This document shows positions 2,825-47,620 of a stretch of DNA of 64,000 nt, piece after piece. Origin of the DNA: Escherichia coli (GTDB taxonomy: Bacteria; Pseudomonadota; Gammaproteobacteria; Enterobacterales; Enterobacteriaceae); NCBI RefSeq assembly GCF_048403405.1, contig NZ_CP183136.1; one strand, given 5' to 3'. The position numbers and the translations under genes were made by a program. Below the pieces are notes generated by a model, which was not told where the DNA came from, searched no databases, and worked only from the letters and a program-made list of their open reading frames with translations. The stretch's first letter is position 1. The number at the start of each line of letters is the position of its first letter.

Positions 2825-3229
2825 TTGAAAAGATTTGGTACACGTTCTGCAACAGGTAAGATGGTAAAACTAAAATTACCTGTAGATGTGGAAAGTCTAT
2901 TAATTGAGGCAAGTAACAGAAGCGGAAGAAGTCGATCGTTTGAGGCAGTAATAAGACTTAAAGATCATCTTCACCGCTATCCAAAGTTTAACAGGGCAGG
3001 GAATATCTATGGTAAGTCGCTGGTTAAGTATCTGACAATGCGTCTGGATGATGAAACTAACCAGCTACTTACTTGCAGCCAAAAATCGTAGTGGATGGTG
3101 TAAAACAGATGAGGCATGCAGACAGAGTTATTGATCATTTGATCAAGTTATCCTGATTTTTATAACTCGGAGAAATATTCAGGGAGGCAGATAGAAGAGG
3201 AACGATATCAACATTTAAATACACTCTAG
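2825..3229 (+). pseudogene. traY: traY (F-type), frame-disrupted in the 3' half
   Basis: ORF 2819-3091 matches the TraY N-terminal part then stops early; the remaining TraY-like residues are in other frames. Confidence 0.65.
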
Positions 3230-3266
3230 TTTTATTCATTTATCCGTATTAATTAGAGGTAATCTT

Positions 3267-3637
3267 ATGAATGCTGTTTTAAGTGTTCAGGGTGCTTCTG
3301 CGCCCGTCGAAAAGAAGTCGTTTTTTTCTAAATTCACTCGTCTGAATATGCTTCGCCTGGCTCGCGCAGTGATCCCGGCTGCTGTTCTGATGATGTTCTT
3401 CCCTGCAGCTGGCGATGGCCGCTGGCAGCAATGGTCACGGACCTGATGGCTAAGCGGTCAGGACCACGGTTAAGGCGACCTTCGGTAAGGACTCCAGTAT
3501 CGTTAAATGGGTTGTTCTGGCTGAAGTTCTGGTCGGTGCAGTCATGTACATGATGACCAAAAACGTCAAGTTCCTGGTCGGCTTTGCCATACATCTCTGT
3601 ATTTATTGCTGTGGGTATGGCCGTCGTTGGCTTCTGA
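3267..3637 (+). pseudogene. traA: traA (propilin), frame-disrupted
   Basis: ATG at 3267 gives the pilin leader, then the frame breaks near 3400-3440; the pilin C-terminus appears in the frame of ORF 3544-3963. Confidence 0.7.
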
Positions 3638-8747: not shown

Positions 8748-11375
8748 GTGAATAACCCACTTGAGGCCGTCACTCAGGCGGTTAACTCCCTCGTCACAGC
8801 ACTGAAACTGCCTGACGAATCCGCAAAGGCCAATGAAGTTCTGGGCGAAATGAGCTTCCCGCAGTTCAGCCGTCTGCTGCCGTACCGTGATTACAACCAG
8901 GAATCCGGTCTGTTCATGAATGACACCACGATGGGCTTTATGCTGGAAGCCATCCCCATCAATGGGGCGAATGAGTCCATTGTGGAGGCCCTCGATCACA
9001 TGCTGCGCACCAAACTGCCGCGCGGTATTCCGTTGTGTATCCATCTGATGTCCAGTCAGCTGGTTGGTGACAGGATTGAATACGGGCTGCGTGAGTTCTC
9101 CTGGTCAGGTGAACAGGCTGAACGGTTTAACGCCATTACCCGGGCCTATTATATGAAAGCGGCAGCGACACAGTTTCCGCTGCCGGAGGGGATGAATCTG
9201 CCCCTGACCCTGCGCCATTACCGGGTGTTTATCTCGTACTGTTCTCCTTCGAAGAAAAAAAGCCGGGCCGACATTCTGGAAATGGAAAACCTGGTGAAAA
9301 TCATCCGGGCGTCGTTACAGGGGGCCAGTATCACCACACAGACGGTGGATGCACAGGCCTTTATCGATATTGTCGGGGAGATGATTAACCATAACCCGGA
9401 CTCCCTGTACCCGAAAAGACGTCAGCTGGACCCGTATTCTGATCTGAATTATCAGTGTGTGGAGGACAGTTTTGATCTGAAAGTCCGGGCTGATTACCTG
9501 ACGCTGGGCCTGCGTGAGAACGGCAGGAACAGCACGGCCCGCATCCTGAATTTCCATCTGGCCCGTAACCCGGAAATCGCCTTCCTGTGGAACGTGGCCG
9601 ACAACTACAGCAACCTGCTGAACCCGGAACTGTCCATCTCCTGTCCGTTCATCCTGACGCTGACTCTGGTGGTGGAAGACCAGGTGAAAACCCACAGCGA
9701 AGCCAACCTGAAGTACATGGACCTGGAGAAAAAGTCGAAGACCTCCTATGCCAAATGGTTTCCGTCCGTGGAGAAAGAGGCGAAGGAGTGGGGGGAACTG
9801 CGTCAGCGGCTGGGCTCCGGTCAGTCCTCCGTGGTGTCCTACTTCCTCAACATCACAGCATTCTGCAAGGACAATAATGAAACGGCGCTGGAAGTGGAGC
9901 AGGACATCCTGAACAGCTTTCGTAAAAACGGTTTTGAGCTGATTTCACCGCGCTTTAACCACATGCGCAATTTCCTGACCTGCCTGCCCTTTATGGCCGG
10001 GAAAGGGCTGTTTAAACAGTTGAAAGAGGCCGGAGTGGTTCAGCGCGCAGAGAGCTTTAATGTTGCCAACCTGATGCCGTTAGTGGCGGATAACCCCCTG
10101 ACACCGGCAGGTCTGCTGGCACCCACCTACCGTAACCAGCTGGCGTTTATCGATATTTTCTTCCGGGGGATGAATAACACCAACTACAACATGGCGGTCT
10201 GTGGCACCTCCGGGGCCGGTAAAACCGGGCTGATACAGCCACTTATCCGCAGCGTGCTGGACTCCGGAGGCTTTGCCGTGGTGTTCGACATGGGGGATGG
10301 ATACAAGTCCCTGTGTGAGAACATGGGCGGGGTGTATCTGGACGGTGAAACCCTGCGTTTTAACCCGTTTGCGAACATCACCGATATTGACCAGTCAGCG
10401 GAGCGTGTCCGTGACCAGTTGTCAGTGATGGCCAGCCCCAACGGTAACCTGGATGAAGTGCATGAAGGTCTGCTGTTGCAGGCGGTCAGAGCCTCCTGGC
10501 TGGCCAAAGAGAACAGAGCACGTATTGATGACGTGGTGGATTTCCTGAAAAACGCCAGTGACAGCGAGCAGTATGCCGAGTCACCGACTATCCGCAGCCG
10601 TCTGGACGAAATGATTGTGCTGCTTGACCAGTACACTGCCAACGGCACTTACGGCCAGTATTTTAACTCTGATGAGCCGTCCCTGCGGGATGACGCAAAA
10701 ATGGTGGTGCTGGAGCTGGGCGGACTGGAAGACCGTCCGTCACTGCTGGTTGCGGTGATGTTCTCCCTGATTATCTACATCGAGAACAGGATGTACCGCA
10801 CGCCGCGTAACCTCAAGAAACTGAACGTTATTGATGAAGGCTGGCGTCTGCTGGACTTCAAAAATCACAAGGTCGGTGAATTTATTGAGAAAGGCTACCG
10901 TACGGCCCGCCGTCATACCGGTGCCTATATCACCATCACACAGAACATCGTCGACTTTGACTCTGATAAGGCCTCCAGTGCTGCCCGCGCGGCATGGGGT
11001 AACTCCTCCTACAAAATTATCCTCAAACAGAGTGCGAAGGAGTTCGCGAAATACAACCAACTGTATCCGGACCAGTTCCTGCCACTGCAGCGCGACATGA
11101 TTGGTAAGTTTGGTGCGGCCAAAGACCAGTGGTTCAGTTCCTTCCTGCTGCAGGTGGAAAACCATTCCTCCTGGCACCGTCTGTTTGTGGACCCGTTAAG
11201 CCGCGCCATGTACAGCTCTGACGGCCCGGATTTTGAGTTTGTGCAGCAGAAGCGTAAAGAGGGGCTGAGTATTCATGAGGCAGTGTGGCAGCTGGCGTGG
11301 AAGAAGTCAGGGCCGGAAATGGCTTCGCTGGAAGCCTGGCTGGAAGAACATGAGAAATACAGGAGTGTGGCATGA
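8748..11375 (+). CDS. traC: TraC, T4SS ATPase (VirB4-like)
   Basis: 875-aa ORF, GTG start, Walker A GTSGAGKT; matches F TraC along its length. Confidence 0.97.
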   Translation: MNNPLEAVTQAVNSLVTALKLPDESAKANEVLGEMSFPQFSRLLPYRDYNQESGLFMNDTTMGFMLEAIPINGANESIVEALDHMLRTKLPRGIPLCIHLMSSQLVGDRIEYGLREFSWSGEQAERFNAITRAYYMKAAATQFPLPEGMNLPLTLRHYRVFISYCSPSKKKSRADILEMENLVKIIRASLQGASITTQTVDAQAFIDIVGEMINHNPDSLYPKRRQLDPYSDLNYQCVEDSFDLKVRADYLTLGLRENGRNSTARILNFHLARNPEIAFLWNVADNYSNLLNPELSISCPFILTLTLVVEDQVKTHSEANLKYMDLEKKSKTSYAKWFPSVEKEAKEWGELRQRLGSGQSSVVSYFLNITAFCKDNNETALEVEQDILNSFRKNGFELISPRFNHMRNFLTCLPFMAGKGLFKQLKEAGVVQRAESFNVANLMPLVADNPLTPAGLLAPTYRNQLAFIDIFFRGMNNTNYNMAVCGTSGAGKTGLIQPLIRSVLDSGGFAVVFDMGDGYKSLCENMGGVYLDGETLRFNPFANITDIDQSAERVRDQLSVMASPNGNLDEVHEGLLLQAVRASWLAKENRARIDDVVDFLKNASDSEQYAESPTIRSRLDEMIVLLDQYTANGTYGQYFNSDEPSLRDDAKMVVLELGGLEDRPSLLVAVMFSLIIYIENRMYRTPRNLKKLNVIDEGWRLLDFKNHKVGEFIEKGYRTARRHTGAYITITQNIVDFDSDKASSAARAAWGNSSYKIILKQSAKEFAKYNQLYPDQFLPLQRDMIGKFGAAKDQWFSSFLLQVENHSSWHRLFVDPLSRAMYSSDGPDFEFVQQKRKEGLSIHEAVWQLAWKKSGPEMASLEAWLEEHEKYRSVA

Positions 11376-19075: not shown

Positions 19076-20448
19076 ACCTCTTCTGGTTCTTTGTGCTGCT
19101 TTACTGACGGTCACACCCGCAGCGTCAGCGGATGTGAACAGCGACATGAATCAGTTCTTTAACAAGCTGGGCTTCGCCTCCAATACCACCCAGCCGGGCG
19201 TCTGGCAGGGGCAGGCCGCCGGCTATGCTTACGGTGGCTCCCTGTATGCCCGTACTCAGGTTAAAAATGTTCATCTGATTTCCATGACGCTGCCGGATAT
19301 CAATGCCGGATGTGGCGGCATCGACGCCTATCTCGGCTCGTTCAGCTTTATTAATAGCGAGCAGTTGCAGCGTTTTGTTAAGCAGATTATGAGCAATGCT
19401 GCCGGTTACTTCTTTGACCTTGCCCTGCAGACAACGGTGCCGGAAATCAAAACCGCAAAAGACTTCCTGCAGAAAATGGCAAGCGACATTAACAGTATGA
19501 ACCTCAGTTCCTGCCAGGCGGCACAGGGGATTATCGGCGGGCTTTTCCCCCGGACGCAGGTGTCCCAGCAGAAAGTCTGTCAGGACATTGCCGGTGAGAG
19601 CAATATTTTTGCTGACTGGGCTGCTTCCCGGCAGGGATGTACCGTTGGCGGGAAATCTCGACAGCGTCAGGGATAAAGCCAGCGACAAGGATAAGGAGCG
19701 GGTGACCGAAAAACATCAACATCATGTGGAATGCGCTTTCCAAAAACAGAATGTTTGACGGCAACAAAGAGCTGAAAGAGTTTGTGATGACGCTGACCGG
19801 CTCACTGGTGTTTGGTCCCAGACGGCGAAATCACACCGCTATCGGCGCAGAACCACTGACCGCTCATATTATCCGGGCCATGATGGAAGGCGGTACAGCA
19901 AAAATTTATCACTGCAACGATTCTGACAAATGCCTGAAAGTGGTGGCAGACACACCGGTGACCATCAGCCCGGGATAATGCACTGAAGTCTCAGATTACT
20001 AAACTTCTGGCCAGCATTCAGAACAAGGCTGTCAGTGACACGCCTCTGGATGACAAGGAAAAAGGCTTTATTTCCAGTACCACCATCCCCGTCTTCAAAT
20101 ACCTGGTTGACCCGCAGATGCTCGGTGTTTCCAACAGTATGATTTACCAGCTGACGGACTATATCGGTTACGACATCCTGCTGCAGTACATTCAGGAGCT
20201 GATACAGCAGGCCCGGGCGATGGTGGCCACCGGGAAATTATCGACGAAGCAGTTATCGAACAGTATTAACTGGACAATATGAATGATGCCACCGCGGCAG
20301 ATTGCGGCGTTTCCAGTCACAGGTACAGGTGCAGCAGGATGCGCTGCTGGTCGTCGACCGTCAGATGAGCTACATGCGTCAGCAGCTTTCCGCCCGCATG
20401 CTCAGTCGTTACCAGAACAACTATCACTTCGGAGGGAGCACGCTGTGA
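19059..20448 (+). pseudogene. traH: traH (pilus assembly), frame-disrupted
   Basis: ORF 19059-19676 matches the TraH N-terminal part with signal peptide; later TraH-like segments are in other frames (for example ORF 19724-19978); stop at 20446-20448. Confidence 0.75.
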
Positions 20449-23217
20449 ATGAAGTTTATGTGATTGCCGGTGGTGAATGGTTGCGGAATAACCTGAACGC
20501 CATTGCCGCCTTTATGGGAACCAGGACGTGGGATTCCATTGAAAAAATTGCTCTCACCCTGTCTGTTGTTGCGGTGGCCTTTATGTGGGTACAGCGGCAC
20601 AACGTGATGGATTTGCTGGGCTGGGCGGCGGTGTTTGTGCTTATCAGCCTGCTGGTTAATATCCGTACGTCGGTGCAGATTATTGATAACAGTGACCTGG
20701 TCAAAGTCCATCGGGTGGATAATGTGCCGGTCGGACTGGCGATGCCACTTTCACTGACGACCCGTATCGGGCATGCAATGGTGGCCAGTTACGAGATGAT
20801 CTACACGCAACCGGACAGTTTCACCTACAGCAAAACGGGGATGCTGTTTGGCGCAGAACCTGGTATGCAAAAAGCACCGACTTTTTGTCCCGCAATCCGG
20901 AAATCGCCAATCTTTTTCAGGATTATGTGCAGAACTGTGTGATGGGGGATATTTACCTGAACCACAAATACACGCTGGAGGAGCTGATGGCCTCCGCTGA
21001 TCCCTACACGCTGATTTTTTCCCGCCCCAGTCCGCTGCGGGGCGTTTATGACAGCAATAATAATTTCGTGACCTGTAAGGACGCGTCGGTTTCGCTGAAA
21101 GACAAGCTGAATCTGGACACACAGACGTGGCGGCAAAACCTGGCATTATTATGTGCAGCAGATATTTGGCGGTCAGCCCGGATCCGGACCTGTTATTCAG
21201 TGCAACTGGTTGAGTGACAGTTACCGTTATTTCTACGGCTCCAGCCAGTCTGCCAGTCAGATCATGCGCCAGAACGTCACCATGAATGCGCTGAAGGAGG
21301 GTATCACCAGTTATGCAGCCCGTAACGGTGACTACCGCCAGCCTGGTGAATCTGGCCACCACGTCATCGATGGAGAAGCAACGTCTGGCACATGTCTCCA
21401 TTGGTCATGTGGCTGATGCGAAACACTGCCGATGGCGCAGACCATTCTGGTGGGCATTACCATCGGTATTTTCCCGCTCCTGGTACTGGCGGCTGTCTTC
21501 AACAAACTGACGCTGTCTGTTCTGAGAGGCTATGTGTTTGCCCTGATGTGGTTGCAGTCATGGCCAATGTTGTATGCCATTCTGAACAGCGCCATGACAT
21601 TTTATGCGAAGCAGAATGGTGCACCGGTGGTGCTCTCGGAAATTTCACAGATACAGCTGAAATACTCCGATCTGGCTTCCACTGCCGGGTATCTTTCCAT
21701 GATGATACCCGCCATTATCCTGGATGATGGTCAGAGGCCTTGGCGCCGGTTTTTCCAGCGTGTACAGCCATTTCGCTTCCTCTGCTATCAGCCCGACTGC
21801 CAGTGCGGCAGGCAGTGTGGTTGACGGTAATTACTCCTACGGCAACATGCAGACGGAAAACGTGAACGGCTTCAGCTGGAGCACCAACAGCACCACGTCG
21901 TTTGGTCAGATGATGTACCAGACCGGCAGTGGCGCAACTGCCACACAGACCCGTGACGGTAATATGGTGATGGATGCAAGCGGAGCGATGTCCCGTTTAC
22001 CGGTTGGTATCAATGCAACGCGTCAGATTGCAGCGGCACAACAGGAAATGGCCCGGGAGGCGTCGAACAGAGCAGAAAGCGCCCTGCATGGTTTCAGCAG
22101 CAGTATTGCCAGTGCCTGGAACACGCTCAGTCAGTTTGGTTCTAACCGGGGGAGCAGTGATTCTGTCACCGGTGGCGCTGACAGCACCATGAGTGCACAG
22201 GACTCCATGATGGCCAGCCGTATGCGCAGTGCAGTGGAAAGCTATGCGAAGGCGCATAATATCAGTAATGAGCAGGCGACTCAGGAACTGGCATCAACAG
22301 GTTCTAGGTTCTCGTCTGGCGGAATGTATGCAGATGCTCATGCTGAATGGGGGATTAAACCTGAAATTCTTGGTGTTGGTGGTGGGGTTGGTGTCAGAGG
22401 CGGGTTTAAGGGAAGTCTTGGATGCGAACGGATGATGACTCACATTCTGCAAGTAGTGGCAGCAGAGCTACCCATGATGCTCGCCATGATATTGACGCTA
22501 AAGCCAGTACAGGACTTTAAAGAAGCCAGCGATTACTTTACCAGTCGCAAGGTCAGTGAGTCCGGCAGCCATACTGACAATAATGCTGACTCCCGGGTGG
22601 ACCAGTTGTCTGCAGCCCTGAACTCAGCGAAACAGAGTTACGACCAATACACGACGAATATGACCCGCAGCCATGAATATGCGGAAATGGCCTCCCGTAC
22701 TGAAAGCATGAGCGGGCAGATGAGTGAAGACCTGTCGCAACAGTTTGCACAGTATGTGATGAAACGCGCACCGCAGGATGCAGAAGCTATTCTGACAAAT
22801 ACCAGTTCGCCGGAGATTGCAGAACGTCGTCGGGCGATGGCATGGTCTTTTGTGCAGGAACAGGTACAGCCTGGTGTTGATAATGCCTGGCGGGAATCCC
22901 GTGGCGATATTGGTAAAGGAATGGAGAGCGTACCTTCGGGTGGTGGCAGTCAGGATATTATTGCTGACCATCAGGGACATCAGGCCATTATTGAGCAAAG
23001 AACGCAGAACAGTAATATCCGTAATGATGTAAAACATCAGGTTGATAATATGGTCACAGAATATCGTGGCAATATCGGAGATACTCAGAACAGTATCCGT
23101 GGCGAGGAAAATATTGTAAGACGGGCAGTATTCTGAACTGCAAAATCATCATAAAACAGGAGGCATTATCTACAGAATAATAAATATAATGAAGAGCAAG
23201 AAACGTCAGAAGATTAA
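20445..23217 (+). pseudogene. traG: traG (mating-pair stabilisation / entry exclusion), frame-disrupted in several places
   Basis: GTG at 20445 (MNEVYVIAGG...); TraG-like translation is split over ORFs 20283-20942, 20885-21217, 21153-21416, 21432-21824 and 21724-23136; 3' end approximate. Confidence 0.75.
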
Positions 23218-23290
23218 TACCTGACGCCATCAGAAGAGGCTGTGAAAACAGATGGTGGATGATAAGAAGGATACGACTGAAGGGGCCATT

Positions 23291-23699
23291 ATGATCACTC
23301 ACTATGATATAAAAACGGAGACACAGAAACTAAAGGATGTACTCTCTGTAGAGGGAGTTAATATTCCGCCATTATTACAAGTCATAAAGCCAGGGAACTG
23401 TATGTGTTTTTATGGGTTTTATTATGGCCAACTTTTCTGCGTTTAGCTATCAGTTAAAAGTTGATGTCCGGGATGCTGGCTTTGATATATGTGCTAGTGG
23501 CATGATGGGGTTCCTCCTTTTTGTGGCCATTACAAATGGAATGATGTTATACCTTGCGATTCCTGATAGTTTCAGAAATGAGTCGAAAATAATAACTTTT
23601 ATGTATGATAAGAACAAAACTTATATCTTGTCGTTTGTGATTGTTTTTTCTATGGTTTCCTTTGCTGCATACGTATCTTATTTGGGTTTTTGCATCTAA
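23291..23699 (+). pseudogene. traS: traS (entry exclusion), frame-disrupted
   Basis: ATG at 23291 (MITHYDIK...); hydrophobic translation is split between ORFs 23252-23446 and 23412-23699. Confidence 0.55.
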
Positions 23700-23824
23700 T
23701 GATTACTATTCGTAATTATTTCTCTTGGTGTATACCATAGATATAAATCGTTATAATCTCTCTGCAATAGTCTCAGTAATAGGTCTGTTCAAAAAAGAGT
23801 CTGTTAGTTAAAAGGATATTCTGG

Positions 23825-24556
23825 ATGAAAACAAAAAAATTGATGATGGTTGCACTGGTCAGTTCCACTCTGGCCCTTTCAGGGTGTGGTGCGATGAGCA
23901 CAGCAATCAAGAAGCGTAACCTTGAGGTGAAGACTCAGATGAGTGAGACCATCTGGCTTAAACCCGCCAGCGAACGCACGGTATTTCTGCAGATCAAAAA
24001 CACGTCTGATAAAGACATGAGTGGGCTGCAGGGCAAAATTGCTGATGCTGTGAAAGCAAAAGGATATCAGGTGGTGACTTCTCCGGATGCAGCCTACTAC
24101 TGGATTCAGGCGAATGTGCTGAAGGCCGATAAGATGGATCTGCGGGAGTCTCAGGGATGGCTGAACCGTGGTTATGAAGGCGCAGCTGTTGGTGCAGCGT
24201 TAGGTGCCGGTATTACCGGCTATAACTCAAATTCTGCCGGTGCCACACTCGGTGTAGGCCTTGCTGCTGGTCTGGTGGGTATGGCTGCAGATGCGATGGT
24301 GGAAGATGTGAACTATACCATGATCACGGATGTGCAGATTGCAGAGCGTACTAAGGCAACGGTGACAACGGATAATGTTGCCGCCCTGCGTCAGGGCACA
24401 TCAGGTGCGAAAATTCAGACCAGTACTGAAACAGGTAACCAGCATAAATACCAGACCCGTGTGGTCTCAAATGCGAACAAGGTTAACCTGAAATTTGAAG
24501 AGGCGAAGCCTGTTCTCGAAGACCAGCTGGCCAAATCAATCGCAAATATTCTCTGA
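23825..24556 (+). CDS. traT: TraT, surface-exclusion outer-membrane lipoprotein
   Basis: 243-aa ORF with lipobox LALSGCGAM; matches TraT. Confidence 0.95.
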
Positions 24557-24820
24557 TTATCTTCCGGAGGCTGGTCTGACCGGCCTCCTGACTGACGCCT
24601 CGCTTTGCTCGTTGTCCAACCCCGGAAAGAAATAAAATAAATTTTATTTCTCCCCGGCGTTTCCGAAATAAATATGAAAACACTGAGCGGTTGTGCAAAT
24701 TCTTTGTGCGACCGTGAAGTGTTGCCGGCGAAGCCCGGAATTCTGAACGTGATTATTGAATCTTATTGCGATACGATGTGAATAATCAGTCCGACTGACT
24801 TTTTTCTTCGGAATATCATC

Positions 24821-27155
24821 ATGAGTTTTAACGCAAAGGATATGACCCAGGGCGGTCAGATTGCGTCCATGCGTATCCGCATGTTCAGCCAGATCGCCAA
24901 TATCATGCTTTACTGCCTGTTTATTTTTTTCTGGATACTCGTTGGTCTGGTTTTATGGGTAAAAATAAGCTGGCAGACGTTTGTGAACGGCTGTATTTAC
25001 TGGTGGTGTACCACGCTGGAAGGCATGCGGGATTTAATCAAGTCCCAGCCGGTATATGAGATCCAGTATTACGGCAAAACCTTCCGGATGAACGCTGCTC
25101 AGGTACTGCATGATAAATATATGATTTGGTGCGGAGAGCAGCTATGGTCCGCATTCGTTCTGGCCACAGTTGTGGCACTGGTTATTTGCCTGATTACCTT
25201 CTTTGTTGTCTCCTGGATTCTGGGGCGTCAGGGTAAACAACAGAGCGAAAATGAAGTCACAGGTGGTCGTCAGCTGACAGACAATCCGAAAGACGTTGCC
25301 CGGATGCTGAAAAAAGACGGCAAGGACTCCGATATCCGGATTGGCGACCTGCCGATTATCCGGGATTCCGAAATCCAGAACTTCTGTCTGCACGGCACGG
25401 TCGGGGCCGGTAAGTCGGAGGTTATCCGTCGTCTGGCCAACTACGCCCGTCAGCGCGGTGATATGGTGGTGATTTATGACCGTTCAGGGGAATTTGTTAA
25501 AAGTTACTATGATCCCTCCATCGATAAAATCCTGAATCCGCTGGATGCCCGCTGTGCCGCATGGGATTTGTGGAAGGAGTGCCTGACACAGCCGGATTTT
25601 GATAATACCGCAAATACTCTGATCCCGATGGGTACAAAAGAGGACCCGTTCTGGCAGGGTTCAGGACGTACCATTTTTGCGGAAGCGGCGTACCTGATGC
25701 GTAATGACCCCAACCGCAGCTACAGCAAACTGGTGGACACACTGCTTTCCATCAAAATCGAAAAACTGCGTACCTTCCTGCGTAATTCACCGGCGGCCAA
25801 CCTGGTGGAAGAGAAAATCGAGAAAACGGCGATTTCCATCCGTGCTGTGCTGACCAACTACGTGAAAGCCATCCGTTACCTGCAGGGGATTGAGCATAAC
25901 GGTGAGCCCTTCACCATCCGTGACTGGATGCGTGGTGTCCGGGAAGATCAGAAAAACGGCTGGCTGTTTATCTCATCGAACGCCGACACCCATGCCTCCC
26001 TGAAGCCGGTGATCTCCATGTGGCTGTCCATTGCCATTCGTGGTCTGCTGGCAATGGGAGAAAACCGTAAACGTCGTGTGTGGTTTTTCTGTGACGAGTT
26101 ACCCACGTTACACAAACTGCCGGATCTGGTGGAGATCCTGCCGGAAGCCCGTAAGTTCGGTGGCTGTTATGTGTTTGGTATCCAGTCCTATGCCCAGCTG
26201 GAAGATATCTACGGTGAGAAAGCGGCGGCCACGCTGTTTGACGTCATGAACACCCGTGCTTTTTTCCGTTCTCCCGAGCCATAAGATTGCAGAGTTCGCT
26301 GCCGGTGAGATTGGTGAGAAAGAGCACCTGAAAGCCAGCGAGCAGTATTCCTACGGTGCTGATCCGGTACGTGACGGGGTATCGACCGGTAAGGATATGG
26401 AGCGTCAGACGCTGGTCAGTTATTCCGACATTCAGTCTCTGCCGGATCTGACCTGCTATGTCACTCTGCCCGGACCGTATCCGGCAGTAAAACTCTCTCT
26501 GAAATATCAGGCACGACCGAAGGTCGCTCCGGAGTTTATTCCGCGTGACATCAACCCGGAAATGGAGAACCGTCTGAGTGCCGTACTTGCCGCAAGGGAA
26601 GCAGAAGGTCGTCAGATGGCCAGCCTCTTCGAACCGGAGGTTGCCTCCGGAGAAGATGTGACTCAGGCTGAACAGCCACAACAGCCACAACAGCCACAAC
26701 AGCCACAACAGCCACAACAGTCACAACAGCCACAACAGCCACAACAGCCACAACAGCCACAACAGCCACAACAGCCACAACAGCCACAACAGCCACAACA
26801 GCCACAACAGCCACAACAGCCACAACAGCCACAACAGCCACAACAGCCACAACAGCCACAACAGCCACAACAGCCAGTGTCTCCTGCCATCAACGATAAG
26901 AAGTCAGATGCAGGTGTGAGTGTTCCGGCAGGGGGGATCGAGCAGGAGCTGAAAATGAAACCGGAAGAAGAGATGGAACAGCAACTGCCACCCGGGATCA
27001 GTGAATCCGGTGAAGTGGTGGATATGGCCGCTTATGAGGCATGGCAACAGGAAAATCATCCGGACACCCAGCAGCAGATGCAGCGTCGTGAAGAGGTGAA
27101 CATTAATGTGCACCGGGAGCGCGGGGAGGATGTTGAGCCGGGAGATGATTTCTGA
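24821..27155 (+). pseudogene. traD: traD (coupling protein), frameshifted near 26275 as sequenced
   Basis: ORF 24821-26284 has Walker A GTVGAGKS and ends [11 protein letters not shown]; the TraD C-terminal region with the QQP repeat continues in another frame (ORF 26256-27155). Confidence 0.85.
26673..26870 (+). repeat. Tandem 9-bp repeat (CAGCCACAA, about 22 units) encoding the TraD QQP tract
   Basis: Repeat units read directly; one variant unit CAGTCACAA. Confidence 0.9.
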
Positions 27156-30100
27156 TGTTGAGTTTCAGCGTTGGTTAAATCGGCAGGCAGTGCCGGAAAC
27201 TATTACACCGACAAGGATAATTACTATGTGCTGGGCAGCATGGGAGAACGCTGGGCTGGTCAGGGGGGCTGAACAGCTTGGGACTGCAGGGCAGCGTCGA
27301 TAAGGATGTTTTTACCCGTCTTCTGGAGGGCAGGCTGCCGGACGGAGCGGATTTAAGCCGCATGCAGGATGGCAGTAATAAGCATCGTCCCGGCTACGAC
27401 CTGACCTTCTCCGCCCCCAAAAGTGTCTCCATGATGGCCATGCTCGGGGGCGATAAACGCCTGATTGATGCACATAACCAGGCCGTGGATTTTGCTGTCC
27501 GTCAGGTGGAGGCGCTGGCTTCCACACGGGTGATGACGGACGGACAGTCAGAAACGGTGCTGACCGGTAATCTGGTGATGGCACTGTTTAACCATGACAC
27601 CAGTCGCGATCAGGACCCACAGTTACACACGCATGTAGTGGTGGCTAATGTCACGCAGCATAACGGCGAGTGGAAGACACTGAGCAGTGACAAAGTGGGG
27701 AAAACCGGATTTATCCGAGAACGTGCTACGCGAACCGGATTGCGTTCGGGAAGATCTATCAGAGTGAGTTACTGTCAGCGCAGGTTGAGGCGCTGGGTTA
27801 TGAAACCGAAGTGGTCGGTAAGCACGGTATGTGGGAGATGCCGGGCGTACCGGTGGAGGCCTTTTCCAGTCGTTCACAGGCTATCAGGGAGGCCGTCGGT
27901 GAAGACGCCTCGCTGAAATCCCGGGATGTGGCGGCACTGGATACGCGAAAATCCAAACAGCACGTCGATCCGGAAATCAGAATGGCTGAATGGATGCAGA
28001 CGCTGAAGGAAACCGGGTTCGACATCCGGGCATATCGTGACGCGGCGGATCAGCGTGCGGAGACCCGCACGCAGGCGCCCGGGGCTGTTTCACAGGAGGG
28101 GCCGGATGTGCAGCAGGCGGTGACACAGGCCATTGCCGGATTAAGTGAACGAAAAGTGCAGTTTACGTACACGGACGTGCTGGCCAGAACGGTCGGTATA
28201 CTGCCGCCGGAAAATGGTGTGATTGAACGGGCACGCGCCGGTATCGATGAGGCCATCAGTCGTGAGCAGCTTATCCCCCTCGACCGTGAGAAGGGGCTGT
28301 TCACATCAGGAATTCATGTGCTCGATGAGCTGTCCGTCCGGGCACTCAGTCGTGACATCATGAAACAGAACCGGGTGACCGTACATCCGGAGAAAAGTGT
28401 CCCCCGGACGGCTGGTTACAGCGATGCGGTCAGTGTTCTGGCACAGGACCGTCCGTCGCTGGCCATTGTGTCCGGGCAGGGCGGTGCAGCCGGGCAGCGT
28501 GAGCGGGTGGCTGAACTGGTCATGATGGCCCGGGAGCAGGGGCGGGAGGTGCAGATTATCGCTGCTGACCGTCGCTCGCAGATGAACCTGAAGCAGGATG
28601 AACGGCTGTCCGGTGAGCTGATAACCGGACGTCGTCAGCTGCAGGAGGGCATGGTCTTCACGCCGGGCAGTACTGTTATCGTCGACCAGGGCGAAAAACT
28701 CTCCCTGAAAGAGACGTTAACCCTGCTGGACGGTGCCGCACGTCATAACGTACAGGTCCTGATAACCGACAGCGGGCAGCGAACCGGTACAGGCAGTGCG
28801 CTGATGGCCATGAAGGATGCCGGGGTGAACACGTATCGCTGGCAGGGCGGAGAACAGCGACCGGCAACCATCATCAGTGAACCGGACCGGAATGTCCGCT
28901 ATGACCGGCTGGCCGGAGATTTTGCGGCCAGCGTGAAAGCCGGAGAAGAGAGCGTGGCACAGGTCAGCGGGGTACGGGAACAGGCCATACTGACACAGGC
29001 CATTCGCAGTGAGCTGAAAACACAGGGCGTGCTCGGACACCCGGAGGTGACCATGACCGCCCTGTCACCGGTCTGGCTGGACAGCCGGAGCCGTTATCTG
29101 CGGGATATGTACCGACCGGGGATGGTGATGGAGCAGTGGAACCCGGAGACACGCAGTCATGACCGCTATGTTATCGACCGGGTGACGGCGCAGAGTCACA
29201 GCCTGACCCTGCGGGATGCGCAGGGCGAAACGCAGGTGGTGCGTATTTCCTCCCTGGACAGCAGCTGGTCGCTGTTCCGGCCGGAAAAAATGCCGGTGGC
29301 AGACGGCGAGCGACTGAGGGTGACAGGGAAAATTCCCGGACTCCGCGTCTCCGGCGGTGACCGCCTGCAGGTGGCATCCGTCAGTGAAGATGCGATGACG
29401 GTTGTTGTGCCGGGGCGGGCTGAACCGGCCACCCTGCCTGTGGCTGATTCACCGTTCACGGCACTGAAGCTGGAGAACGGCTGGGTGGAAACGCCCGGGC
29501 ATTCCGTCAGTGACAGTGCGACGGTGTTTGCCTCCGTCACACAGATGGCAATGGACAACGCCACCCTGAACGGTCTGGCCCGCAGCGGTCGTGATGTCCG
29601 GCTGTATTCCTCACTGGATGAAACCCGTACTGCGGAAAAACTTGCCCGCCATCCCTCCTTTACGGTGGTTTCTGAGCAGATAAAGGCGCGGGCCGGTGAG
29701 ACATCGCTGGAAACCGCTATCAGTCTGCAGAAAACCGGGCTGCACACGCCGGCACAGCAGGCCATTCATCTGGCCCTTCCTGTGCTGGAAAGTAAAAACC
29801 TGGCCTTCAGCATGGTGGACCTGCTGACAGAGGCGAAGTCGTTTGCTGCAGAAGGAACCGGTTTTACTGAACTGGGAGGGGAAATCAATGCGCAGATAAA
29901 ACGCGGTGACTTACTGTATGTGGATGTGGCAAAAGGCTATGGCACAGGCCTGCTGGTTTCTCGTGCGTCGTATGAGGCAGAAAAAAGTATTCTTCGCCAT
30001 ATTCTCGAAGGTAAGGAGGCGGTCACGCCGCTGATGGAGAGAGTACCCGGCGAACTCATGGAGACGTTAACGTCGGGACAGCGTGCCGCCACCCGTATGA

Positions 30101-41256: not shown

Positions 41257-41820
41257 TCATCCCCCTACAACCACTCCCATTCGTTTAAGTATTTTTAAAC
41301 CTGCTTCCTGTGGTATCTTTATAGATAAGATCCTGTTTATCTCAGGATTTATATCGAGACCTTCTGTCATTGAAAAATCACAGTGAGACAAATCAGAATG
41401 TCTGAACTCTGTATTATTAAACTCCGAACCAGTAAAATCAGATTTACGAAGGTCTGTTTCCTCAAATAAACAATCACGGAAGCGACTGGATAAAAAAATA
41501 GATTTCTGTAACCGTAAACTAATAAAATCAACAAATCTCAAATCACAATTTACAAGAGAAAAAGTACAGGGAAACATAATGTCTGCTGCATTTACTCCTT
41601 GTAATAAACAATCTTTGAATTCACAGTCAATAAGTTTAAAAAAATTAAGTTTTAAATTCTTTATTGAGCAGTTTACGAAGCGACATTTTTCGAACTCACA
41701 ATCGCGAAAGTTAAAGTTGTCAAGCTGTATTCGTTCAAATATACAATTGTAATAATTTACACCTGATAATTCACTTTCACTGAGGTGTCGTTTTGTGATT
41801 CTTTTTTCTATTATATCCAT
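41257..41820 (-). CDS. mcbG: McbG, pentapeptide-repeat microcin B17 immunity protein
   Basis: 187-aa ORF made of pentapeptide-like repeats; last gene of the operon. Confidence 0.9.
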   Translation of the reverse strand: MDIIEKRITKRHLSESELSGVNYYNCIFERIQLDNFNFRDCEFEKCRFVNCSIKNLKLNFFKLIDCEFKDCLLQGVNAADIMFPCTFSLVNCDLRFVDFISLRLQKSIFLSSRFRDCLFEETDLRKSDFTGSEFNNTEFRHSDLSHCDFSMTEGLDINPEINRILSIKIPQEAGLKILKRMGVVVGG

Positions 41821-41823
41821 GTG

Positions 41824-42555
41824 TCAGTCTCCTGTTCCCATAACTTCTTTAATAAATGCCTTTTCTGGAGTTGTTTCATTATTGGATTGAATAAAATCAC
41901 TCATATCAGAATAACGATTTATACTATTTTTTGAAAGCATATAGAAGGGGATTTTATCTCTTGTTAATTCATCAAAAATATGAGTTGAGAAAAATACAGT
42001 TTTCCCGTCAGCGGTGATCTTATTTATCAGTTCCCATAACATCATTCTGTACTGAATATCAATGCCTACAGTTGGTTCATCCAGTAAAAATAAACGGGCA
42101 TTTTTGCAAAGCGTTAGCATCAAAGATATGATAAGCCAACGCTTCTCTCCATAACTTACCGTGTAAGTCCTTTTACGTCTTATTTTATCATAGCGAATGA
42201 AAAAATTATCATTCCATTTATGATTAAGCTCTGTCCATGCCTGTTTTTTAGTTAACTTATTGAAGCAGCAAATCAAATCAAGAACCTCCTCATTCCTTAG
42301 TGTACCTGAAAGATTTATGACTTGAGGTAGACTTACTAATTCTCCATCAGAGAAATTTCGCTTGAGGGTCCCTTCATAATTACTGACTCCGCCCCTGATA
42401 AGGTTAAAAAGAGTGGTCTTCCCGGCTCCATTTTCTCCAAGCAGACCTATCAACTCTCCCTGCTCAATCTTAAGCGACAGATTATTGAAAACAGGGGGTA
42501 AATTTACTTTATATGAAAAGCTCAGAGAGTTGATTTCTAAAAGAGGTATGGTCAT
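41824..42555 (-). CDS. mcbF: McbF, ABC transporter ATP-binding protein (microcin B17 export/immunity)
   Basis: Walker A GENGAGKTT; overlaps mcbE. Confidence 0.9.
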   Translation of the reverse strand: MTIPLLEINSLSFSYKVNLPPVFNNLSLKIEQGELIGLLGENGAGKTTLFNLIRGGVSNYEGTLKRNFSDGELVSLPQVINLSGTLRNEEVLDLICCFNKLTKKQAWTELNHKWNDNFFIRYDKIRRKRTYTVSYGEKRWLIISLMLTLCKNARLFLLDEPTVGIDIQYRMMLWELINKITADGKTVFFSTHIFDELTRDKIPFYMLSKNSINRYSDMSDFIQSNNETTPEKAFIKEVMGTGD

Positions 42556-43277
42556 TGAGAACTCCAGACTGGCTCAGTTTTGAAGGTTAGTGCTGAAATA
42601 ATACTTATGATTAACATTATACTATAGAAAAATATCGTCATCAGAGACAACTCCTGATCTGACTGGAGTATTGTAGAATAGATGGCGATAGGATTAACCT
42701 GATTTATCCAGTAAACGATCCCCTCATTATATTTTAATGATACAATTCCTGATACCATACAGACAGTTATTAATACAGAATAGATAGTGCTGGCTGTTTG
42801 GAATGTGACTCTGAACGATGCCATGAAAGTGAGTGAAACCATCATAAATGCATTTATGTATATCGATTTTAAAATAATCATTACTATTTGATAATCTGGA
42901 CTTGCCTGGAATCCTGTTAGTACGACTAAAATGAAAAAAAACACATACAAAATAGACATGATAAGTGAGGCTATTAATTGAGAACGAATAAATAATAGTC
43001 GACCATCCATATTATGCACGAAGGTAGCAATAAAACCACTTTCTCTTCTTCCGACCAGATACAGACAGTAATTAAACAGAACAACAGAAAAAGAAATGTA
43101 GCCTACAAACCATGATATTTGTTTTCCGAGCCATGCTGTATCACCATAATGAAGTTCAATTTCATTGAAATGAAGGAAAAAGAACAACACTGTAGGTGAC
43201 ATAATTGTCCATATTAAGCTGAAAGGGGTTCTGATTTGTTCCATCAGAAAAATTATCGCCATTTTTAATGTAACCAT
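42552..43277 (-). CDS. mcbE: McbE, ABC transporter permease (microcin B17 export/immunity)
   Basis: 241-aa polytopic membrane protein directly upstream of mcbF. Confidence 0.9.
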   Translation of the reverse strand: MVTLKMAIIFLMEQIRTPFSLIWTIMSPTVLFFFLHFNEIELHYGDTAWLGKQISWFVGYISFSVVLFNYCLYLVGRRESGFIATFVHNMDGRLLFIRSQLIASLIMSILYVFFFILVVLTGFQASPDYQIVMIILKSIYINAFMMVSLTFMASFRVTFQTASTIYSVLITVCMVSGIVSLKYNEGIVYWINQVNPIAIYSTILQSDQELSLMTIFFYSIMLIISIISALTFKTEPVWSSQ

Positions 43278-43286
43278 TTGTTATCC

Positions 43287-44477
43287 TTATGGGAATGGTA
43301 CCATCTTTGATTCTCTGACTTTAATACCGTCCCCGGTATGGTAAATTTTATTATTAATGTTTATTGCACCTGAGTTATTCATATGAAGGAAAAAATCAGG
43401 GCTTACTATTTTTGTGTACCAGACAAGGCTGTTACTTACTCTTTCCCTGGCATAGTAAACAAAAATATTATCAGAAATTTGTTGAAGATAGTTTAATAAA
43501 TTTGTGTCTGACGTAATATTTTCCTCAAGCGTTAACTTGACATCATCAGACAGTAGTACCGTATTTTCACACAAATCCGTAAACGACTCGTACTTGTTGC
43601 ATGACATAAAGTGACGCTGGTAACTATCAATGATGTCATCATCAGTATAACCGCCAATAAGAAAGTTGTGCAGGCATATATACGATTGCCACAATTCCAC
43701 TACGGATTTACAAAGTGCTTTTTTCAGACTATTAGCATAGGATAATCCGGTACTGTATTTTATTCGACTGATTTTGTTTTTTGTGCCATACAGGGTTAGT
43801 ACTGCGTGTCCAGGAGCTCCGGGCAGGGTGATATCGAAAATCCTGATATCTCCTTCTGACCTGAGAGCCAGTAAAATCTCATCTATATGATTTATGCCTG
43901 TTACTATTTCACTGGATATTTCAGTATTGGCTTTTCCCTGTAACCAGTAAAGAAGGAGGGACTGTCTCTCCATAAATTCACACAAGGAACCTTCTATGGC
44001 ATCGTTCAAACTACCATGAAAGCTACATCCGCATGTATCTCTGTCAGGATAAAATTTCAGATCATCTGCAGCGGTTATATTGTCGAGTGCAATTATGACT
44101 GCAGGTATTTCTTGTTGTTCAAGGCTAAACAGATTAAAGGCTCTGACCGTTTTAAATTTATGGGTTATGATTTCATCGCGGGTCAGTGATGAGATCTGAA
44201 AAAATGCTTCGGTAAAAGCCTTTGCAGCAGATGGAGGCATCATCTCATATAATGTTTTCTGACCACCGGTGACTATCTCATTAAAAAAATGACGGCGTTC
44301 AAAATATTCACCTATTGCCCCCTGAATTGACTTCAGAGTTTCACCGGCCGCGCTGGCTGGTGTAATACGCTCATAGTCCCATATCTGAGAAAACGTTGGC
44401 ATATTTCTGTTCAGTTTTGGACTCATGGCCATTGTGGCCGGCCATGCGGACATAAGGTTACTGTAGACATTTATCAT
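43287..44477 (-). CDS. mcbD: McbD, YcaO-type cyclodehydratase of microcin B17 synthetase
   Basis: 396-aa ORF in operon position; matches McbD. Confidence 0.9.
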   Translation of the reverse strand: MINVYSNLMSAWPATMAMSPKLNRNMPTFSQIWDYERITPASAAGETLKSIQGAIGEYFERRHFFNEIVTGGQKTLYEMMPPSAAKAFTEAFFQISSLTRDEIITHKFKTVRAFNLFSLEQQEIPAVIIALDNITAADDLKFYPDRDTCGCSFHGSLNDAIEGSLCEFMERQSLLLYWLQGKANTEISSEIVTGINHIDEILLALRSEGDIRIFDITLPGAPGHAVLTLYGTKNKISRIKYSTGLSYANSLKKALCKSVVELWQSYICLHNFLIGGYTDDDIIDSYQRHFMSCNKYESFTDLCENTVLLSDDVKLTLEENITSDTNLLNYLQQISDNIFVYYARERVSNSLVWYTKIVSPDFFLHMNNSGAININNKIYHTGDGIKVRESKMVPFP

Positions 44478-45276
44478 CGTTTACATCTCCAAAAAACTGA
44501 ACGATCAGTGGCGCTACAGTCCTCTGATCCAGATTCATTGTTTTTGCTACGTATGAATCGGTATATCCCGCCCATACCCGGTTTTTCAGTCCTATTTGAT
44601 CTGCAACCAATACTGCGTTCTGATACATCGAACCTGTTTCCATTAAGGCCATCCGGTATCCTCTGTAGCGATATTTGAACAAAGCTTTTTCAAAAATAAT
44701 GCAATAGACGAGAGCAAAATGGGGTTTACCAAGACGTTCCGAATCCCCACCGGACAGGCTTCGGTAGAGTGACTGAGTATTACATGTAGCAACAGGTTCC
44801 AGTGCCTGACTTAGCGGCAGGTAGTGATAAACATTAGTTCCTGCCTGCCAGTTTTCTGTATTTTCAGATAATCTGCATAAAAAAACTTCAATCGGGTACA
44901 ATGCCCCCCCAGAAGGATAAGGTCTTCTTACAGAGCCAGGATCAGGTGAGCTGAATGCATTGACTAATAACTTTTCAATAGTACGAATGGAAAGTTTATT
45001 TTTGTCGCAAAAGTTTATTCCTGATGGGAGCCTTTCACGACTAAAATTATGTGATGAGGATATGTTTATTACGGAGCTGAAACCTGGCCTGAAGAGAACT
45101 TCTTTATTTTCAAATTTCTCCAGATGGGCAAGAGGTACCGCGGACACGAAAGTTCGTTCAGCAAATTCGGGGAGGGAAGCAAAGTTACCTCTGACATGAA
45201 AATCTTTAACAATGGCCAGAACTTCAGGATCTGTGTAATGCGTTACTTCCACTAAAGAGAGTTCGTGTTTTGACAT
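44458..45276 (-). CDS. mcbC: McbC, FMN-dependent dehydrogenase of microcin B17 synthetase
   Basis: 272-aa ORF in operon position; matches McbC. Confidence 0.9.
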   Translation of the reverse strand: MSKHELSLVEVTHYTDPEVLAIVKDFHVRGNFASLPEFAERTFVSAVPLAHLEKFENKEVLFRPGFSSVINISSSHNFSRERLPSGINFCDKNKLSIRTIEKLLVNAFSSPDPGSVRRPYPSGGALYPIEVFLCRLSENTENWQAGTNVYHYLPLSQALEPVATCNTQSLYRSLSGGDSERLGKPHFALVYCIIFEKALFKYRYRGYRMALMETGSMYQNAVLVADQIGLKNRVWAGYTDSYVAKTMNLDQRTVAPLIVQFFGDVNDDKCLQ

Positions 45277-46065
45277 GTTATCTCTCCAGACAGCTGCAAG
45301 CCTGCCAGTGAATTACCGGCTCTTTACATAAAATACAGGTGATTAAATCAGCGCTAACAGATGACATAAAGTTATCGACATGACTTTTAACCAGTGAAGT
45401 ACCTGTCAACTCCTGAAGTCGCCGTTTTATTAAATGATAGCTGAATCCTCTTTCTGATTCGCCTAAAGCCAATGCTGGTAGTGTCATTTGGTATTTTTTC
45501 AGTAACTGAAGTAAGTTTGCCCAGGACATTTCGTTACGTCTGAAGCTTTTTTCTTCCCTGCTCAGCCATCTATCTATATGACAAAAATGGCAGGGAGTAC
45601 CAAGATCAGGTGAATATACTCCATCTATCCTGAATGACTCCTTTAGGTAGTAGCTTTGGATGAAGGCAACACCAGGGTTACTTTCAAATTTTGAATAGAT
45701 TCTTTTTACAATGTCTGAATGATAGTTTTCGAGATGTAACCAGATTAGTGTTGAATCGCTCACATTAATATTATTATCTTTTATATCAATGATATGAGAA
45801 ACAAAAACACCATCAGATTTCCATTGTTCCCGGGCATTACTGAAAAGATGTGGAACATCGCTTATTATGACTGAGTTTACCCAGAGAGGTGATGTTTTCG
45901 TTTTATTTATCACGCCTGTGGTAATAAGAAACTCTTTGCCCTTGTCTTTATCAATAAGCGATTCGTCCAGTAGTTTATCAAGGAGGTATTCAGAAATAAT
46001 ACCCTGTTTGGATCGTAGGCTTTCGAGTACTTTTTTCATTCCCTCATGTGTAATGTCTACTGAAG

Positions 46066-46074
46066 AAATGTAGG
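46066..46074. repeat. Target-site duplication AAATGTAGG, left copy
   Basis: Identical 9 bp directly flank both IS ends. Confidence 0.9.
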
Positions 46075-47131
46075 GGCTTTGTTGAATAAATCGAACTTTT
46101 GCTGAGTTGAAGGATCAGATCACGCATCTTCCCGACAACGCAGACCGTTCCGTGGCAAAGCAAAAGTTCAAAATAACCAACTGGCCCACCTACAATAAAG
46201 CCCTCATCAACCGTGGCTCCATAACTTTCTGGCTGGATGATGAAGCTATTCAGGCCTGGTATGAGTCAGCAACACCTTCTTCACGAGGCAGACCTCAGCG
46301 CTATTCTGACCTTGCCATCACGACTGTGCTGGTCATTAAACGCGTATTCAGGCTGACCCTGCGCGCTGCGCAGGGCTTTATTGATTCCATTTTTTCTCTG
46401 ATGAACGTTCCGCTACGCTGCCCGGATTACAGCTGTGTCAGCAGGCGGGCAAAGTCGGTTAATATCAGTTTCAAAACGCCCACCCGGGGTGAAATCGCAC
46501 ACCTGGTAATTGATTCCACCGGGCTGAAGGTCTTCGGTGAAGGCGAGTGGAAAGTCAAAAAGCATGGTCAGGAACGCCGCCGTATCTGGCGTAAGCTGCA
46601 TCTGGCAGTTGACAGCAACACACATGAAATCATCTGTGCAGACCTGTCGCTGAACAATGTGACGGACTCAGAAGCCTTCCCGGGTCTTATCCGGCAGACT
46701 CACAGAAAAATCAGGGCAGCATCGGCAGACGGCGCTTACGACACCCGGCTCTGTCACGATGAACTGCGGCGTAAGAAAATCAGCGCGCTTATCCCACCCC
46801 GAAAAGGCGCGGGTTACTGGCCCGGTGAATATGCAGACCGTAACCGTGCTGTTGCGAATCAGCGAATGACCGGGAGTAATGCGCGGTGGAAATGGACAAC
46901 AGATTACAACCGTCGCTCGATAGCGGAAACGGCGATGTACCGGGTAAAACAGCTGTTCGGGGGTTCACTGACGCTGCGTGACTACGATGGTCAGGTTGCG
47001 GAGGCTATGGCCCTGGTACGAGCGCTGAACAAAATGACGAAAGCAGGTATGCCTGAAAGCGTGCGTATTGCCTGAAAACACAACCCGCTACGGGGGAGAC
47101 TTACCCGAAATCTGATTTATTCAACAAAGCC
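46075..47131 (+). mobile_element. IS903-type insertion sequence (IS5 family), 1057 bp
   Basis: 18-bp terminal inverted repeats GGCTTTGTTGAATAAATC at both ends, single transposase ORF, 9-bp direct duplication. Confidence 0.9.
46152..47075 (+). CDS. IS903 transposase (DDE)
   Basis: GTG at 46152 within ORF 46107-47075 gives 307 aa; fills the IS. Confidence 0.85.
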   Translation: MAKQKFKITNWPTYNKALINRGSITFWLDDEAIQAWYESATPSSRGRPQRYSDLAITTVLVIKRVFRLTLRAAQGFIDSIFSLMNVPLRCPDYSCVSRRAKSVNISFKTPTRGEIAHLVIDSTGLKVFGEGEWKVKKHGQERRRIWRKLHLAVDSNTHEIICADLSLNNVTDSEAFPGLIRQTHRKIRAASADGAYDTRLCHDELRRKKISALIPPRKGAGYWPGEYADRNRAVANQRMTGSNARWKWTTDYNRRSIAETAMYRVKQLFGGSLTLRDYDGQVAEAMALVRALNKMTKAGMPESVRIA

Positions 47132-47140
47132 AAATGTAGG
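47132..47140. repeat. Target-site duplication AAATGTAGG, right copy
   Basis: Identical 9 bp directly flank both IS ends. Confidence 0.9.
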
Positions 47141-47257
47141 TAATAAGCAGGGTCTTTGTATTTCTGGAAATTATCTCAAACGGCAGAATATTGATCATAT
47201 CTTTTCCTTTTTTAATATCAGGGAGCACCATGCTCCCTGAACGGTTAATTCAACGTA

Positions 47258-47467
47258 TCAGATATGTGAACCACTTCCGCCGCTGCCACCGTTTCCACCA
47301 CTACAACCGTTGCTGCAACCACCACAACCGCCACCTTGACCACCGCAGCTACCGCCGCCGCCGCCGCCGCCACCACCACCAATGCCAACACCTAATGGAG
47401 ACTGGCGTGATAATTTAAGAGCATCAACGGACAAAACTACACCAAATTCACTCGCTTTTAATTCCAT
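47258..47467 (-). CDS. mcbA: McbA, microcin B17 precursor peptide
   Basis: 69-aa ORF with leader then Gly/Ser/Cys-rich core (GGGGGGGGGGSCGGQGGGCGGCSNGCSGGNGGSGGSGSHI). Confidence 0.95.
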   Translation of the reverse strand: MELKASEFGVVLSVDALKLSRQSPLGVGIGGGGGGGGGGSCGGQGGGCGGCSNGCSGGNGGSGGSGSHI

Positions 47468-47620
47468 AAGGACTCCTTTTTTAAGGGAAATTAATGCTTA
47501 TGACATCTGAATAGTATGTTGGCCAACACTAGTTACTTGCCGTAATTAACTATATTTTGCAATGATAATTTGAACTAAATTTGTACGCTTGTTAAATATT
47601 TAATAATAATATCAGTTGGT
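47468..47620 (-). promoter_or_regulatory. Probable mcb operon promoter region
   Basis: AT-rich sequence immediately upstream of mcbA; individual promoter elements not resolved. Confidence 0.35.

Follow-up and report, generated by a model that had tools for sequence, protein, structure and literature searches.

A 22-unit QQP repeat array in traD of an IncFII-type plasmid, very probably a long allele of an already described variable region

The QQP motif of F-like TraD proteins has been described as variable in length, with 5 residues (QPQQP) in F and 23 residues in R1 (Lang et al. 2011, PMC3245843). The same study suggests that the heterogeneity of the TraD C-terminus, including the length of QQP, may underlie the differences between F and R1 in infection by the R17 phage, and proposes phage resistance as a driver of the diversification (PMC3245843). 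On the DNA level, a 9-base repeat in traD is reported with 2, 6, 7 and 14 copies in closely related Salmonella plasmids (PMC7311658). The contact of TraD with TraM is located in the last ~8-15 residues of the protein, 710-717 in F (PMC7555446, PMC3159463, PMC10939261). For F and pED208, the last 15 residues of TraD stimulate cognate transfer 10^4 to 10^5-fold, while deletion of the rest of the unstructured C-terminal domain of F TraD costs only ~10 to 30-fold in transfer (PMC10939261). In addition, an avidity model has been put forward in which several TraD tails engage TraM tetramers (PMC3159463).

Here we present the traD gene found in a stretch of 64,000 nucleotides, referred to below as the window, and the repeat array that it contains. 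On the whole, the array is very probably the QQP variable region of F-like TraD that is already described, in a long allele. The gene matches thousands of plasmid traD genes, and the order of the tra operon around it is as expected: traT (23825..24556) precedes it and fragments of traI follow from 27155 on, an arrangement colinear with that of plasmid pCREC774-5. No near-identical record of the window was found in PLSDB or among complete E. coli genomes, where the best match has 97.9% identity over 24 kb. The features of the gene are as follows.

24821..27155, plus strand: traD, the gene of an F-type type IV coupling protein, as written an open reading frame at 24821..26284 followed by one in the next frame at 26256..27155
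26272, plus strand: extra T shifting the traD frame, placed by alignment to intact relatives; the window reads TTC-T-CCCGAG where R100-type alleles have TTCCCCGAG and F-type alleles TTCTCCCAG
26553..27152, plus strand: TraD C-terminal extension, residues 578-777 of the repaired protein, lying beyond the end of the TraD_Ftype model (residue 577)
26625..26930, plus strand: non-conserved linker of 102 aa, residues 602-703, 80% P/Q/A/S/T, between the conserved LFEP and GG.EQEL motifs and holding the QQP tract
27108..27152, plus strand: last 15 codons, the TraM-binding or C15 discrimination motif of the literature (PMC7555446, PMC3159463, PMC10939261), identical to F TraD

Removal of a single base, the T at 26272, gives a TraD of 777 aa, which scores 1667.6 bits against PRK13700 (cut-off 1221) and, over residues 8-577, 834.7 bits against the equivalog TIGR02759 (TraD_Ftype; cut-off 521). 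Pfam assigns PF12615 (TraD_N, membrane) to residues 32-128, PF10412 (TrwB-type nucleotide-binding) to 172-561 and PF12696 to 419-541, so that the repaired protein has the domain order of F-type TraD, the TraD_N membrane domain coming first and the TrwB/VirD4-type nucleotide-binding domain after it. As written, the reading frame is interrupted and the first open reading frame stops after 487 codons, an interruption that is probably due to the sequence as given rather than to the gene itself. The acidic tail ending in an aromatic residue is present and identical to that of F TraD, and would be expected to bind TraM as reported for F (PMC3159463, PMC7555446). Judged from the alleles it resembles, the window traD alternates on a fine scale between segments of the F type and of the R100 type. 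A separate translation of the downstream open reading frame, starting from the GTG at 26256, was also considered; inspection by eye finds no Shine-Dalgarno-like sequence ahead of it.

The array itself consists of the following parts.

26673..26870, plus strand: QQP repeat array of 22 complete 9-bp CAGCCACAA units, by unit count and Tandem Repeats Finder
26718..26726, plus strand: the sole variant unit CAGTCACAA, unit 6, changing Pro to Ser, by direct reading
26871..26876, plus strand: partial 23rd unit CAGCCA (Gln-Pro), which closes the tract and is followed by GTG TCT CCT (Val-Ser-Pro)

Each CAGCCACAA unit codes for Gln-Pro-Gln in register and is read as QQP repeats. Tandem Repeats Finder reports the array at 26671-26876 with period 9, 22.9 copies, 98% matches, no indels and a score of 405. 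The units are identical in 21 of 22 cases, synonymous positions included, and a probe of two units matches 21 times in the 64-kb window, every time inside the array, and not at all in 100 dinucleotide-preserving shuffles. Read in the open reading frame 26256..27155, the array gives QP(QQP)n, a tract of 68 residues (618-685 of the repaired TraD) that is continuous with the conserved C-terminus and is followed by 92 residues; there is no out-of-frame indel in the array, which is in frame with both flanks. The QQP repeats thus lie inside the C-terminal extension and upstream of the TraM interaction domain. The initial annotation had described about 22 tandem units at 26673-26870 coding for a long QQP tract in the C-terminal extension of TraD, and both the coordinates and the unit prove exact; its statement that the tract is longer than in F also holds, since F has one full unit, QPQQP (PMC3245843). 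It is right, too, in placing the tract in the extension that carries the TraM-binding function, but the tract itself is not the contact, which is made by the extreme C-terminal tail, 92 residues farther downstream.

Some further observations concern the array and its surroundings. The Ser in unit 6 comes from a single C-to-T change at 26718-26726, and the variant unit is not seen in the arrays of seven relatives, which were read at the protein or the DNA level; either a true private SNP or a mistake in the sequence may lie behind it. A metagenome search for this unit in its context returned 5 matches, of which the one inspected (L012) is an unrelated Q-rich sequence and not traD. In the right flank (26883-26894) the window has VSPAIN as in F, where its closest backbone relatives have VSSVIN, and farther downstream it has again the R100-type DAGVSV. 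The antisense open reading frames over the array (VAV..., WLL..., CCG...) are the repeat read in other frames. No promoter-like sites were found across 26300-27400, and the one terminator-like site in the same range (26976-26993, 3' of the array) does not exceed the number seen in shuffles. The folding of the repeat strand is weaker than that of shuffled sequence (z = +2.5). Nothing was found to indicate an additional role of the array on the DNA level.

It is of interest to compare the length of the array with those in other plasmids. For this, 656 bp across the array were used as a query against PLSDB and all complete E. coli genomes, and 60 records were taken at even steps down each ranking, which gave 113 full-length rows from two samples that overlap in content. 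Counts were obtained from match spans, by which F-type alleles are over-counted by one unit owing to a 9-bp insertion in the left flank. The apparent number of units lies between 1 and 33, the median being 8, and 4 of 113 records have at least 22 (22, 22, 29 and 33). In 111 of the 113 full-length rows the span differs from that of the window by exact multiples of 9 bp. Direct counts give 26 units in MS14387 plasmid 2, 23 in pCREC774-5, 33 in pKGu016_2, 22 in p1-2AR, 8 in pKMi006_1 and 1 in the F' of JM109, and their agreement with the spans validates the conversion of spans to units. The closest relative, pCREC774-5, thus has 23 units, and two other plasmids have exactly 22. Among plasmids with the backbone type of the window (~60-73 kb IncFII) we find 10, 12, 13, 13, 22 and 23 units, a more than two-fold spread among close relatives. 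The array is therefore variable in length among related plasmids, in the PLSDB sample as well as in that of complete E. coli genomes, and the window allele is located at roughly the 96th percentile, being neither the longest nor unique. The initial annotation had named a length typical of the family among the findings that would refute it, and this turns out to be half the case: the array belongs to the upper tail, yet it is within the known range, with relatives at 22-23 units and records up to 33.

Therefore, an allele of 22 units, though long, is nothing out of the ordinary for a tandem repeat whose copy number varies through replication slippage. All units are identical at synonymous positions in the arrays of four relatives counted at the DNA level. 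In pKGu016_2 and p1-2AR, the last four and the last two units at the 3' end, respectively, are CAGCCGCAA, showing that arrays have an internal polarity; the expansion appears to be confined to the CAGCCACAA (CCA) units. With near-identical units arranged head to tail, the array has the form of a slippage-driven VNTR. Whole 9-bp units, that is three codons each, would be gained and lost by replication slippage or unequal recombination, and since the unit has 9 bp the array always stays in frame and acts as a variable-number tandem repeat. The identity of units at synonymous sites points to recent turnover with frequent gain and loss of units, and argues against ancient divergence. As to the mechanism, the polymorphism between plasmids leads us to infer slippage. 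A phase-variable contingency locus is rejected, for the unit of 9 bp is a multiple of three and 111 of 113 spans differ in 9s, which leaves no frame switching.

Besides the DNA, the protein around the tract was compared. An alignment of 27 TraD homologs, with identities as low as 59%, shows no conserved column between the LF motif (L602/F603) and G705. The linkers of these homologs have 42-101 aa with 43-73% P/Q/A/S/T and no conserved sequence, while the window linker has 102 aa with 80%. The composition is thus kept while sequence and length are not conserved, as is typical of a disordered linker. In an AlphaFold model built on the 27-homolog alignment, residues 606-720 have pLDDT 24-36 and no secondary structure, and helices are predicted to flank this stretch at 579-603 and 735-757; the whole model is weak, with a mean pLDDT of 57 and a pTM of 0.38, so that the low pLDDT of the tract speaks only softly for disorder. 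The non-conserved linker, the model and the published deletions of the C-terminal domain (PMC10939261) together suggest that the tract serves as a spacer. The 68-residue QQP tract would then lengthen a non-conserved and probably disordered spacer, which would connect the hexameric ATPase body of TraD with the C-terminal tail by which TraM is captured at the relaxosome. The length of such a spacer would be tolerated over a wide range, within which 22 units would be a long allele.

An alternative to a neutral spacer of tolerated length is that long QQP arrays are adaptive. The tether length would tune the reach of the six TraD tails to TraM-bound oriT, the sensitivity to male-specific RNA phages or the mobilisation of other plasmids, and the repeat would be a fast-mutating tuning knob under selection. 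Such a role is in line with the connection drawn by Lang et al. between QQP length, R17 infection and phage-driven diversification (PMC3245843), with the avidity model, in which reach is a plausible variable (PMC3159463), and with unrelated TraD lineages having evolved non-repetitive linkers of ~100 aa. However, experiments varying the number of QQP were not found in the literature searched, and F transfer gains only ~10 to 30-fold from those parts of the C-terminal domain that precede the last 15 residues (PMC10939261). Moreover, copy numbers form a broad continuum between 1 and 33 and differ greatly inside one backbone, which neutral slippage fits at least as well. We consider the adaptive explanation improbable, and the specific proposition that array length sets transfer efficiency, mobilisation range or RNA phage susceptibility, with alleles of at least 20 units kept by selection in some IncFII lineages, highly doubtful.

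We now turn to the frameshift upstream of the array. The extra base shifts the frame at 26272 and leads to the stop TAA at 26282-26284. The two natural alleles at this position differ by two synonymous SNPs, and the window sequence TTCTCCCGAG keeps a base from each; the same pattern of a base from each allele is seen at 27263, 27283 and 27713. Not one of 3755 PLSDB records matches the window exactly across the 101 bases of the frameshift segment, and a search of the species-representative genome collection does not find the exact junction either. A programmed ribosomal frameshift at 26272 is rejected on the ground that the shift site is not conserved among relatives: besides this lack of identical records, all but one are without the extra base, the frame being intact where annotated.

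The extra T belongs to a much larger set. Compared with its closest relative and an intact reference, the window has ~76 insertions of one or two bases and 0 small deletions, which concentrate in clusters at 3142-3593, 19658-23723, 24736-24807, 26272 and 27167-27782 and fragment traH, traG, traS, traD and traI. Most of the single-base insertions (51 of 72) are outside any homopolymer. In four-way alignments, 41 of 42 insertion columns found only in the window are located no more than two columns from a site polymorphic among the references, where the background fraction is 0.42 (binomial p about 1e-14), and the same alignments contain no window-only deletions and no private window base at polymorphic sites. 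The inserted base equals the base of the other allele at the adjacent SNP in 39 of 43 cases, the T at 26272 included. This looks like the signature of two tra alleles merged into one consensus: reads from two co-resident or mixed tra alleles would have been combined into a single consensus, which would then carry extra bases. On this sequence evidence we infer that the frameshift ~400 bp upstream of the array is probably an assembly artefact, and the real traD is probably intact with its QQP tract translated. The initial annotation placed the array downstream of a traD frameshift near 26275. The position is borne out, with the extra base best placed at T 26272, and the frameshift is indeed present; it is no special feature tied to the repeat, and belongs with the ~76 insertions of one or two bases that carry the merged-allele signature.

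Other plasmids show frameshifts in the same region as well. The unrelated 155-kb river-water plasmid pKMi006_1 (NZ_CP091692.1) has the identical extra T at its position 10711; it has none of the other insertions of the window, carries single-base insertions of its own in traI, and gives three MOBF relaxase matches, in view of which the same cause, merged alleles, is plausible there. RefSeq annotates frameshifts in otherwise intact relatives, namely in traN of pDA33135-70, traI of pWP8-S17-ESBL-12_3 and traD of pMS20658. Assemblies of this plasmid family often contain a single tra gene called as frameshifted.

If the frameshift were real, traD would be a pseudogene cut at residue 487 in the nucleotide-binding domain, the plasmid would lack self-transfer, and the array would be an untranslated relic drifting freely. 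The extra base and the stop at 26282-26284 do stand in the sequence as given, and the fragmentation of traH, traG, traS and traI is as expected of a decaying transfer region; the same T in pKMi006_1 could be a recurrent or inherited mutation, and the frameshift annotations in pMS20658, pWP8-S17-ESBL-12_3 and pDA33135-70 can be read in the same way. Yet natural decay is unlikely in view of the insertion-only spectrum, 76 small insertions against 0 small deletions and mostly outside homopolymers, which decay does not produce. Against it are also the 39 of 43 inserted bases that copy the alternative allele at adjacent SNPs, the lack of private substitutions at polymorphic sites, and the state of the region itself, for the array has no out-of-frame indel, the 92 codons downstream are intact and the tail is identical to F. 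A real frameshift is hence quite improbable, and a consensus of two merged alleles remains the preferred explanation. An extra base wherever two alleles differ would create false pseudogenes in traD, traI, traG, traH and traS, and whoever judged from the annotation that the plasmid is non-conjugative would probably be misled.

It is very unlikely that the number of 22 units goes back to an error of assembly, by which a perfect repeat of 200 bp was collapsed or expanded from a true allele of another length: the consensus problems elsewhere in the window, the probably different array lengths of two mixed traD alleles and the Ser-variant unit, unique among the arrays examined, would favour it, but the array is free of single-base insertions and its frame agrees with that of both flanks, 22 and 23 units recur in independent assemblies of this backbone, and long reads as well as many paired short reads span an array of 200 bp.

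Both the motif and its variability being published and 22 units being inside the public range, the array means little as a discovery. Its use is rather practical: by its length the repeat can serve as a cheap marker of high discriminating power when closely related IncF plasmids are to be tracked, while assemblies may go wrong at this same place.

Several known systems can be compared with this locus. One is the XPZ region of the beta (Bac) protein of group B streptococci, a repeat spacer with a proline at every third residue. Residues 616-693 of the repaired TraD give a weak match to NF038253, the group B streptococcal IgA-binding protein BAC, at 25.5 bits where the cut-off is 1700; the two share the periodic proline at each third residue, while there is no homology and the likeness is compositional only. 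On the side of the plasmid, the window is not R100, an old compiled record that might have accounted for scattered errors: R100 is without mcb genes and differs in content from the window. The window has a microcin B17 operon at ~41257-47500, with homologs of mcbB-G (YcaO/SagB-type genes), to judge by 99.7% identity to the annotated pCREC774-5; from the annotation of the same plasmid, an IS903B transposase gene would lie between mcbB and the mcbA precursor gene.

Among TraD proteins, those of the Klebsiella type (765-772 aa; for example P0038, P0039 and P0045) are alike in having, at the same site, a P/A/S/T-rich linker of 91-101 residues, and have 208-215 aa after the GPYP motif against 220 in the window. 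Unlike that of the window, their linker is non-repetitive, with no tandem DNA repeat behind it. F TraD (717 aa) belongs to the same TIGR02759/PRK13700 family and has the same domain order and an identical tail; it differs in having one full repeat unit and a 3-residue PDV insertion in the left flank, and the window gene differs from it in being broken by the extra base. The hybrid virulence plasmids of Salmonella Enteritidis have a 9-bp QPQ repeat near the 3' end of traD as well, whose copy number varies among close relatives and explains most of their indels, whereas the host and the backbone are others and the arrays are shorter (PMC7311658). The QQP motif itself (PMC3245843) agrees with the window in the gene, in the site upstream of the TraM interaction domain, in the tripeptide and in the length variation between related plasmids. 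It is unlike in length only, the tract having 68 residues in the window against 5 in F and 23 in R1; the window tract is thus longer than any example given there, and shorter than the public records of 26, 29 and 33 units.
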